From: a virus
Lineage: Duplodnaviria > Heunggongvirae > Uroviricota > Caudoviricetes
Virus record (IMG/VR): IMGVR_UViG_2713896905_000004
Span: 1-64,000 of that record
Direction: 5' to 3' (one strand)
DNA length: 64,000 nt
Below the pieces are notes generated by a model, which did no database searches, was not told the origin of the DNA, and was given only the letters and a program-made list of their open reading frames with translations. Below are positions 42,628 through 44,299 of the stretch, piece after piece (within the stretch, counting starts at the first letter, position 1; each line of letters starts with the position of its first letter). The position numbers were made by a program, and so were the translations under genes.

Positions 42628-43746
42628 TTATTCAGCCGCCACCGGTTTTAACAAGCCAGCATCGAGCAGTTTACGCGTCAACCACTGCTGGCCTTTACCC
42701 GTTAATTGAGGCGTCAACCGTATCTGGTAGCCATCTTCATCATCCAGCACCACTTCTTTCACCGTGAAATACCCCGCGTTGATGTACTGCTGGAACGGCA
42801 CATTTTTACGTCCACCGGACGCTATCAGGATGCCGTTCTCCCGTAACCAGACAAACAGCGCGTTTTGCTTAAGTCCAACAACCTTTGCAAAATTCCCAAT
42901 CAGGATCCCTTTAGCTACTGATACCCGGTCGGCAAAATCGACCTTAGGAGCGGCGGCCACCAGCTGCTGATTTAGCTGGTGGGCTTTCTGTTCCAGAAGC
43001 TGCTTTTGTTCAGCCAGTTCGGCAGCCAGGCGTAGGGCTTCTGGTAATGTTTGGGGGATTGCAACCGGTTGCTGTTCTTTTTGCCGGAAGTAGCTGTCTT
43101 CCAGTTTTTCAAAGAATGCCCATGCCTGATCGGTTTCGAGCATTTTAGCGTGGCGGGCTGCGCCGCGTTCTGTCCAGAGGGTGAGTGAGCGAACATTGCG
43201 AGCAATTTTTACAGAGTAGTTTAAAGCTACTCTGTGCTTCAACTCGCGCAATGATTCTCCTTCAACTTTGAAAAAGTGCTTCCCTTCAACAAAGCGTACT
43301 TTGTTCTCATGATGATTTTGGCGAATACGGATTGTTTCTGTCCCATACCCTCTAGCAAGAGTCTCGGTTGTCACTACACGCACTCCCTGCCATTCCAGAA
43401 CGGGAATTTCATCAGACTGATTCTGAACAACCACCAGCTCCGATTCCTGAACTGAAGGTGCATGAATTTTTTCTGATTTAACGTTAGTTGCTTTCATTCT
43501 GTGTGCCTCCTTGCGTGCTTCGGCTGCGACGGTTGCGTAATTCAGATGACCCTGTTCGAGCAGGTATTCGCGGATATCAGACAACAGGATACGGTGAACC
43601 GCGTTCTTGTCCTTTCTCCGGTAAAGTTGTTTGGTGATCATGAAGTAGTTGGCAATAACGCCTGGTATATCCCTGGTACTGATACAGGCAGTGTGCTGTT
43701 CAATTGCCTCGATCATCTCTTCACGGGTAACTAACGATGTTCTCAT
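42628..43746 (-). CDS. antirepressor (ORF6N/KilA-N-like N-domain + KilAC/Ant C-domain), 372 aa
   Basis: 'IPVLEWQGVRVVTTETLARGYGTETIRIRQNHHENKVRFVEGKHFFKVEG' (ORF6N-like) and C-terminal 'FADRVSVAKGILIGNFAKVVGLKQNALFVWLRENGIL'. Confidence 0.75.
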   Translation of the reverse strand: MRTSLVTREEMIEAIEQHTACISTRDIPGVIANYFMITKQLYRRKDKNAVHRILLSDIREYLLEQGHLNYATVAAEARKEAHRMKATNVKSEKIHAPSVQESELVVVQNQSDEIPVLEWQGVRVVTTETLARGYGTETIRIRQNHHENKVRFVEGKHFFKVEGESLRELKHRVALNYSVKIARNVRSLTLWTERGAARHAKMLETDQAWAFFEKLEDSYFRQKEQQPVAIPQTLPEALRLAAELAEQKQLLEQKAHQLNQQLVAAAPKVDFADRVSVAKGILIGNFAKVVGLKQNALFVWLRENGILIASGGRKNVPFQQYINAGYFTVKEVVLDDEDGYQIRLTPQLTGKGQQWLTRKLLDAGLLKPVAAE

Positions 43747-43963
43747 AGTCCCTCCTGAGCAGAAGCGTTAACAGGGAGGCACCAGTAACTGAGAGAATTG
43801 CGTGAATCAGTGGAAAAACGGGCAGAGAAAATACATGGGGCGTCAGGAAGCTGAGAGCGGGCCTCATCTTCTGTTGGTGCAATAACGAAGTGATAGTGAC
43901 GTTTTTGGCAGGAGTAAAAGCGCCAGATAAATTCAGGATGAGTTGGGGTAGGGATAGTAGCCA
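43743..43963 (-). CDS. Icd-like small protein (73 aa) translationally coupled to antirepressor
   Basis: ATG at 43963 with AAGGAGG RBS; starts 'MATIPTPTHPEFIW'; ATGA overlap with ant ORF. The longer 187-codon frame upstream looks non-coding. Confidence 0.5.
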
Positions 43964-44130
43964 TATTGGCAGCCTCCTTAGACGTTGGTATGTAACCACC
44001 GCAGAAGAGACCAATCTTGCTGGCGGTGGACTGTACGGAGTTGGCCTTACTGGCGTCCAAGGTAACCAGCCTACCCGAAGGTAGCCCCATACAGCCCACC
44101 ATTGTAGAGGTGTGCGTGTACGCCGATACA

Positions 44131-44270
44131 AAAAAAGACGCGAGCGGCGTCTGTATCGCCTTAGACTTAAGCGGGAGGCCAATCCCGGCACCCGTTTTAA
44201 TGAGGTGCCTGATAAGCATAAACCGAAAATGCCTCAAGGCGCAAGAGGTCAGGTTCAATGTAACATCGGT
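44131..44270 (-). ncRNA. putative c4-like structured leader/antisense RNA upstream of icd-ant
   Basis: ~140-nt leader between an operator-like site and the icd RBS, ending in hairpin GACGCCGCTCGCGTC + T7 run (44131-44152) on the minus strand; boundaries approximate. Confidence 0.3.
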
Positions 44271-44282
44271 AGTTAAAAAACA

Positions 44283-44299
44283 CAATTCATTAGAGCAAA
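44283..44299. promoter_or_regulatory. C1 operator-like site (core ATTAGAGCAA, ~13/17)
   Basis: Partial operator match oriented for leftward transcription into the leader/icd/ant module. Confidence 0.4.

Follow-up and report, generated by a model that had tools for sequence, protein, structure and literature searches.

The stretch of 64,000 nucleotides (nt) analysed here, called the window throughout (positions 1 to 64,000 of the IMG/VR virus record IMGVR_UViG_2713896905_000004), comes from a P1-like phage-plasmid presented in the reverse orientation of the P1 map and carries a complete immI-type cassette on its minus strand, at 42599-44299, between pacB and c1. This cassette is a genuine, intact and independently coded member of the c4-icd-ant family, common in nature and absent from laboratory P1, and it quite probably works as a functional second immI-type anti-immunity cassette, equipped with its own C4 antisense RNA and a recognition code unlike that of the canonical immI. 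The original prediction, made from the sequence, had pointed to an immI-like module of operator, small RNA, icd and antirepressor adjacent to immC, and every element it listed was recovered in place or within a few bases. The present analysis covers sequence, families, covariation, selection and distribution, and the steps of the mechanism proposed below are transposed by homology from immI of P1 and P7 and from IsrK of Gifsy-1.

Regarding position, the convergent stops of pacB and c1 lie 1,707 base pairs (bp) apart in the window against 24 bp in P1; by megablast, P1, P7 and SJ46 match only the flanks, and RCS47, JL22 and vB_EcoM-673R5 match the whole stretch. The canonical immI is flanked by sim and then by kilA-repL, whereas the flanks here are pacB and c1, so that the cassette must be regarded as paralogous and not as the canonical immI. 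The location first proposed, between pacB and c1 with no kilA-repL following, is therefore borne out by the flanks, and the reading that would reduce the module to the canonical immI in its usual place is rejected, given these flanks and the mere 24 bp of P1. The elements of the cassette and its two flanking genes are the following (aa, amino acids; GA, Rfam gathering threshold).

44303-45787, minus strand: pacB, landmark gene
44283-44299, minus strand: C1-operator-like site TTTGCTCTAATGAATTG, 14/17 match to the consensus ATTGCTCTAATAAATTT
44257-44285, minus strand: predicted upstream promoter, homolog of P1 P51a/P2c4 (TTGTGT, 17-nt spacer, TACATT), aligning with the annotated P2c4
44215-44244, minus strand: predicted downstream promoter, P51b/PisrK-like (TTGCGC, 18-nt spacer, TATGCT), +1 at about 44208
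44131-44208, minus strand: IsrK-type/a1b1 leader RNA, Rfam isrK (RF01394), 60.8 bits, GA 50, model 1-77
44182-44176, minus strand: a1, UUGGCCU, in the loop of a leader hairpin
44166-44159, minus strand: b1, GUCUAAGG, in the leader
44152-44136 (stem) and 44136-44130 (T-run), minus strand: intrinsic terminator, from a terminator scan
44019-44106, minus strand: C4 antisense RNA gene, Rfam C4 (RF01695), 75.9 bits, GA 45, full model 1-87
44062-44054, minus strand: b', CCUUGGACG, in the loop of C4 hairpin 2
44047-44041, minus strand: a', AGGCCAA, in a single-stranded stretch of C4
43973-44014, minus strand: C4 target region (a2, b2 and Shine-Dalgarno), from computed complementarity and covariation
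44014-44008, minus strand: a2, UUGGUCU, C4 target on the icd-ant mRNA
43984-43976, minus strand: b2, CGUCUAAGG, C4 target covering 4 nt of the icd Shine-Dalgarno
43979-43973, minus strand: icd Shine-Dalgarno, AAGGAGG
43743-43964, minus strand: icd homolog, 73 aa, 80% identical to P1 Icd, a leader ORF for the translationally coupled ant
42628-43746, minus strand: ant (Ant1-like), 372 aa, ATGA overlap with icd
43497 (ATG) and 43512-43506 (AAGGAGG), minus strand: internal Ant2-like start, aligning with the annotated P1 ant2 start
42599-42620, in the gap separating the convergent ends of ant and c1: hairpin with a perfect 9-bp stem, ATGCCCGG-ttga-TGCCGGGCAT, from a terminator scan and the sequence
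41744-42595, plus strand: c1, landmark gene

The C4 gene, missed by the original prediction, lies within the stretch of about 150 nt that extends from the terminator to the ribosome-binding site of icd. Its Rfam score exceeds that of P1's own C4 (75.9 vs. 68.8 bits), it adopts the canonical C4 fold at -41.6 kcal/mol (RNAfold), and the mature RNA is placed at about 44100-44022 by homology to P1. Upstream of it, the leader consists of a 5' hairpin, a hairpin presenting a1, then b1 and finally the intrinsic terminator; it scores above the isrK gathering threshold with this 3' terminator in place and also matches the Rfam family c4-a1b1 weakly. Since the P1 stretch from the promoters to c4 reaches 51 bits with c4-a1b1 and a weak 35 bits with isrK, the IsrK-type element is the counterpart of the P1 a1/b1 leader and not the antisense repressor. 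The leader of some 140 nt proposed at first, with a terminator at 44131-44152, was thus right as to the terminator but not as to the antisense RNA, which lies downstream in C4. When the read-through leader is folded to its minimum free energy, a1 pairs with a' and b1 with b' in cis (z = -3.7), and the inactive 'structure A' of the Gifsy-1 IsrK transcript resembles this cis-paired fold (PMC4825925). As for protein annotations over these RNAs, a 187-aa open reading frame (ORF) at 43743-44306, extending the icd frame upstream through C4, was discarded as spurious, as it spans two RNA genes and a terminator. Coding sequences called 'ash family protein' by PGAP overlie the C4 gene and the leader (window 44019-44306; locus L095, 1197-1514; locus L007, 1720-1839) and seem to be a conserved RNA gene taken for a protein.

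The recognition elements of C4 provide the strongest comparative evidence. In the window, b' pairs with b2 over 9 bp and a' with a2 over 7 bp, each with one G.U, and b' and a' also pair with b1 and a1, respectively, in the leader. Complementarity had first been proposed as something to look for between the leader RNA and the ribosome-binding region of ant; the complementarity that matters instead links the C4 loops with the icd ribosome-binding site and with the leader decoys. These pairings were followed across 92 C4 loci, of which 82 were obtained by way of Icd (three close loci from a search of genome contigs with the single Icd protein and 79 from a six-protein alignment applied to viral contigs), the others being the window and annotated phages and plasmids; C4 loci were collected by blastn seeding and MAFFT, and a strict regular expression for C4 was dropped because it missed every IsrK-type copy. 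The loci fall into 12 (a',b') specificity classes. In each class, a' finds its partners in a1 and a2, and b' in b1 and b2, with zero mismatches throughout, and the a and b codes assort combinatorially; the class of the window cassette comprises 30 loci. Such three-way covariation lends strong comparative support to a function of a1 and b1, for which the annotation of P1 still says 'putative'. Cognate duplexes are also predicted to be the most stable, at -18.6 to -22.5 kcal/mol, canonical P1-type C4s reaching -8 to -10 kcal/mol on the window target, in a crude energy matrix where pairings outside a2/b2 were allowed and some off-diagonal values are inflated, so that it speaks for orthogonality in qualitative terms only.

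Regarding the initiation of transcription, the operator-like site, present as first proposed at 44283-44299, starts 4 nt after the pacB stop and overlaps the -35 element of the predicted upstream promoter, as Op51 does in P1. In nearly all P1-type copies, C4 is preceded by a homologous site at a fixed distance (191-216 nt), usually with a 15/17 match, and the variant with G at position 12, as in the window cassette, occurs at 8 loci. By its sequence match, its homologous position and its conservation among copies, the 14/17 site is a putative C1 operator, and the upstream promoter is presumably under C1 control. The predicted downstream promoter is conserved in all copies located between pacB and c1, and the Rfam isrK model starts at 44208. 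The window as a whole contains 13 C1-operator-like sites with at most three mismatches, vs. 0.35 expected by chance, the twelve others being at 25000, 28850, 38645, 39121, 41086, 41169, 41633, 47590, 57899, 59991, 60040 and 63664; this scatter fits an intact P1-type C1 regulon. One of these sites (47590-47606) shares G at positions 12 and 17 with the cassette operator and lies upstream of a 150-aa ORF at the position of lpa, which flanks pacA in RCS47.

By homology, two promoters would fire, the upstream one overlapped by the C1 operator and the downstream one probably constitutive. Most transcripts would end at the intrinsic terminator and yield an IsrK-type RNA of about 77 nt displaying the decoys a1 and b1, and read-through would carry C4, to be processed into an RNA of about 79 nt. 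Pairing of the C4 a' and b' with a2 and b2 would occlude the icd Shine-Dalgarno, so that the coupled ant would not be expressed. In P1, silencing of ant also involves Rho-dependent polarity. The a1/b1 leader, either within its own transcript or, in its short form, in trans, would compete for C4 and thereby set a threshold. Where C4 is absent or non-cognate, e.g. in the presence of a resident prophage of other C4 classes, Icd and Ant1/Ant2 would be made and C1 would be inactivated, a role of Ant that we infer by analogy with P1.

The comparison with P1 and P7 bears out the resemblance to c4-icd-ant noticed at the outset, and shows the module to be an insertion relative to P1. The order and spacing of the putative operator, the two predicted promoters, a1/b1, the hairpin with its T-run and C4 are the same, as are the location of a2/b2 over the icd Shine-Dalgarno, the 73-aa Icd, the ATGA coupling, the nested Ant1/Ant2 starts and the homology of the Ant N- and C-termini; a1, b1, a2 and b2 correspond in position to the features so annotated in P1, although their sequences differ. 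The differences lie in the site (sim/kilA-repL with the lytic replicon for the canonical immI, pacB/c1 without it for the window cassette), in the a'/b' code, in the leader, which passes the isrK threshold in the window and not at the 35 bits of P1, in the operator, as Op51 of P1 has a single mismatch to the consensus, and in the centre of Ant, replaced by an ORF6N domain.

Besides P1, three other systems can be compared. In the isrK-orf45-anrP region of Gifsy-1, considered here by its published description, a terminated leader of the same Rfam family likewise precedes read-through to a processed RNA and a small ORF coupled to an antirepressor, and the leader base-pairs in cis with sequence located further downstream; its short IsrK RNA activates in trans (Hershko-Shalev et al. 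2016, PMC4825925). There, however, orf45 directly follows isrK and the processed RNA is STnc1160 (PMC4825925), whereas icd of the window follows a separate C4 gene, and the output is AntQ induction instead of the presumed inactivation of C1. In the lambdoid phages converting to Shiga toxin (Stx) production (F039, phi191, P13374), the IsrK-to-C4 leader is 79% identical in nt over its full length, and F039 has isrK and C4 annotated in the same order as in the window, its leader preceding Rha/Ant-type genes; these cassettes differ by the absence of icd and of a C1 operator, by a regulated gene right after C4 and by their early-region context. In the immunity system of P4 (CI RNA, seqA/seqB/seqC), a processed small RNA also pairs with repeated sites up- and downstream, and IsrK has been termed a structural homolog of P4 seqA (PMC4825925), but P4, likened here by mechanism, relies on premature termination of replication genes and has neither icd nor ant. 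With a leader and an ORF6N domain of lambdoid type, and icd and Ant termini of P1 type, the window cassette looks like a mosaic. Of related composition, the D6-like plasmids pB2C_96 and pRHB13-C17_2 (L010 and L011) carry an icd preceded by an IsrK-type leader and C4, the next gene coding for a Rha-family protein, with no KilAC Ant and no C1 operator, and show a second, sub-threshold C4-like match (40 bits) about 550 bp upstream.

At the protein level, the 73-codon ORF with an AAGGAGG ribosome-binding site proved to be the homolog of P1 Icd, and the ATGA-coupled 372-aa ORF was indeed found to combine an ORF6N domain (PF10543, residues 116-202, 70.1 bits for a cut-off of 27.8) with an ANT/KilAC domain (PF03374, residues 260-361, 107.9 bits for a cut-off of 25.3), its stop lying 32 bp from the convergent stop of c1. 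By BLASTP, residues 1-88 are about 63% identical to the Ant1-specific N-terminus of P1, and residues 228-372, which include KilAC, about 90% identical to P1 Ant. The ORF6N centre (about 95-228) is unrelated to the centre of P1 Ant, itself without Pfam match, and its nearest relatives outside P1 are the Ant proteins of Stx-converting lambdoid phages (60-68% identity). From these alignments, Ant reads as a chimera whose N-terminus is that of P1 Ant1, whose centre is an ORF6N domain of lambdoid type and whose C-terminus is the KilAC of P1. The coupled icd-ant pair with nested Ant1 and Ant2 starts, which characterises immI of P1 and P7, is present, and the RKEAHRM stretch encoding the Ant2 Shine-Dalgarno and start codon is conserved with P1 Ant1. 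A search of PDB sequences returned no Ant homolog with a solved structure. Compared with divergent copies, the ratio of nonsynonymous to synonymous substitution rates (dN/dS) is well below 1 throughout, at 0.02-0.10 in icd, 0.04-0.09 in the N-terminal part of Ant, 0.07-0.32 for the C-terminus, where the top value comes from very few substitutions and the other comparisons give 0.07-0.09, and 0.34-0.44 for the centre; the ORFs of the cassette are intact and under purifying selection.

This chimeric Ant raises the first alternative, namely that the cassette is regulated as proposed but that its Ant targets a heterologous repressor, of a lambdoid or Stx prophage, and brings about cross-prophage induction. 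The affinity of the centre and of the leader to Stx phages favours it, as does the faster evolution of this centre when C1 stays 99-100% conserved. Antirepressors acting in trans between prophages are reportedly known in Salmonella. Conversely, the N- and C-terminal thirds of Ant are P1-Ant-like and strongly conserved, and ORF6N-type Ants also occur at the canonical immI, once as the only Ant: in plasmid CP083496.1, the sole cassette associates an IsrK-type leader with an ORF6N-type Ant at the canonical position before kilA-repL, from which it follows that such an Ant can serve a P1-like phage by itself. On this evidence, a heterologous target is improbable, and C1 is retained as the presumed one.

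The second alternative, i.e. that the module is the only immI of the genome, moved from sim/kilA-repL to the pacB/c1 site, is very unlikely. It draws on the fact that the window, whose first base lies 210 bp upstream of pmgC, ends about 1.5 kb before the canonical immI site (beyond sim) is reached, as well as on the loss of the canonical immI in some P1-like plasmids, such as pJIE250-3 and pSvP1 (PMC6906374). Yet all five close relatives carrying the module (pQ502, pYZMc17-1_100k, 673R5, JL22 and RCS47) keep the canonical c4-icd-ant-kilA-repL, and the lytic replicon kilA-repL would be required elsewhere in any case; as a marker of kilA-repL, KilA in tblastn is confounded by the KilAC domain it shares with Ant (hits at about 59%) and is reliable only above 90% identity. 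The module of pYZMc17-1_100k is 100% identical to that of the window, and pQ502 is 100% identical to the window across 4.1 kb spanning the module. The canonical C4s of these relatives are of other classes than that of the module, with CUGCUAA/CACAAUC in pYZMc17-1 and CUGCUAA/CGUAAGU in pQ502. Of the two options left by the original prediction, a relocated or a second module, the comparison thus supports the second. Along the sim side, positions 1-153 of the window are unmatched in pQ502, which is elsewhere 98-100% identical in the stretches compared, so that the region upstream of pmgC appears mosaic among close relatives.

Regarding the wider distribution, 290 PLSDB plasmids and 279 of 5,426 complete E. 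coli genomes contain the module over 80% or more of its length; P1-type pacB occurs in 541 of the latter, so that roughly half of the P1-like elements carry the module. All five IsrK-type classes are found at the pacB/c1 site, and neither this site nor the canonical one is restricted to a single Ant centre, the ORF6N type and the P1 type being present at each. Within the IMG/VR contigs and genomes holding several cassettes, the co-resident copies differ in class, with the exception of one tandem duplicate. Three IMG/VR contigs (L083, L089 and L091) have an extra P1-type c4-icd-ant by cre, about 6 kb from the pacB/c1 cassette; this third insertion site is probably that of the 'RD-1' icd-ant homologs reported in pSvP1, and no C4 is found at the cre-adjacent site of the window (cre, 39155-40186, minus strand). 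The 42-kb contig IMGVR_UViG_2698536372_000019 (L022, L087 and L092) displays four cassettes, namely a tandem duplicate of the window class after pacB and two P1-type cassettes of other classes, which may be stacked in reality or result from an assembly that merged several P1-like plasmids. The contig JAFAFU010000035.1 (L015, 3.8 kb), labelled 'MAG: Bacillota bacterium', with an Icd 96% identical to that of the window and an IsrK-type C4 leader, is almost certainly a mis-binned enterobacterial P1-like fragment.

A third alternative would see in the module a decaying, non-functional recombination remnant. Disruption of ant in some copies (L007/pXJW9B263-2, and 673R5, where an assembly error is the probable cause) and the extra mismatch in the window operator could be taken that way, but the intact ORFs, the low dN/dS of icd and of the Ant N-terminus, the perfect RNA-RNA covariation and the occurrence in 279 complete genomes make decay most implausible. 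Lastly, that the IsrK-type RNA would act mainly in trans on host mRNAs as an Hfq-dependent small RNA, its complementarity to C4 being incidental, is hardly conceivable: Rfam does describe isrK as Hfq-binding and the terminator is canonical with its U-tail, but a1 and b1 change together with a' and b' in 12 of 12 classes, which incidental complementarity leaves unexplained, and the demonstrated target of Gifsy-1 IsrK is its own read-through transcript (PMC4825925).

Several observations nonetheless weigh against a functional second immI. Among the operator variants, that of the window is the weakest (14/17, G at position 12), and a strict sigma-70 consensus scan flagged neither of the proposed promoters, so that they are put forward solely on their homology with P51a/b of P1 and on where the isrK model has its 5' end. 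The window class is alone among the 12 in using G.U wobbles (b':b1/b2 and a':a2). The centre of Ant is not that of P1, so that C1 is a presumed target, and with C1 99-100% conserved against 63-100% for the Ant centre, the variability of this centre does not track C1. The canonical immI of the window's own genome, besides, lies outside the window.

Regarding the neighbourhood, the landmark genes further include pmgC (211-777), sit and pacA, the latter forming an operon with pacB. The cassette sits directly downstream of pacA-pacB, in the same orientation, and no terminator is found from the pacB stop (44303) to the operator, so that transcription of the pac operon could enter the cassette. In P1, equivalent pac transcription would reach c1, in antisense, after only 24 bp; in the window, two terminators (44136-44152 and 42599-42620) stand between the pac operon and c1. 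The hairpin at 42620-42599, in the 32-bp gap between the ant and c1 stops, is probably a bidirectional terminator.

The insertion has been mentioned in passing, without analysis, by Venturini et al. 2019 (PMC6906374), and the record of RCS47 labels the gene ant. A full-text literature search, of incomplete coverage and thus weak as evidence of absence, returned no description of the C4/IsrK content, of the specificity classes or of the stacking of cassettes. The c4-icd-ant kind is itself already known; what deserves attention is that cassettes are stacked, that their code is combinatorial and that a1/b1 co-vary with C4. This covariation also ties the C4 system of P1 to Salmonella IsrK and to the antirepressor leaders of lambdoid Stx phages. 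A bolder proposal, that P1-like plasmids bear a stackable combinatorial RNA immunity code of one to three (possibly four) cassettes per genome, each independently keyed by a x b, with the IsrK/a1b1 leader as a co-evolving anti-antisense decoy, and that in addition the pacB/c1 Ant with its Stx/lambdoid ORF6N centre might induce lambdoid (Stx) prophages, is speculative and, taken as a whole, rather unlikely.

The tripartite immunity of P1 was worked out on a laboratory phage with a single immI, and P1-like plasmids are important carriers of resistance genes. About half of the natural P1-like plasmids of E. coli carry, beside c1, this probable second antirepressor switch, keyed by a C4 code of its own. 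With two differing codes, a prophage would be immune to two classes of superinfecting relatives, and with two cassettes, an infecting phage would gain two independent routes past the immunity of a resident prophage, which bears on the coexistence and displacement of P1-like elements, on their induction and on their behaviour as transducing or engineering vectors.

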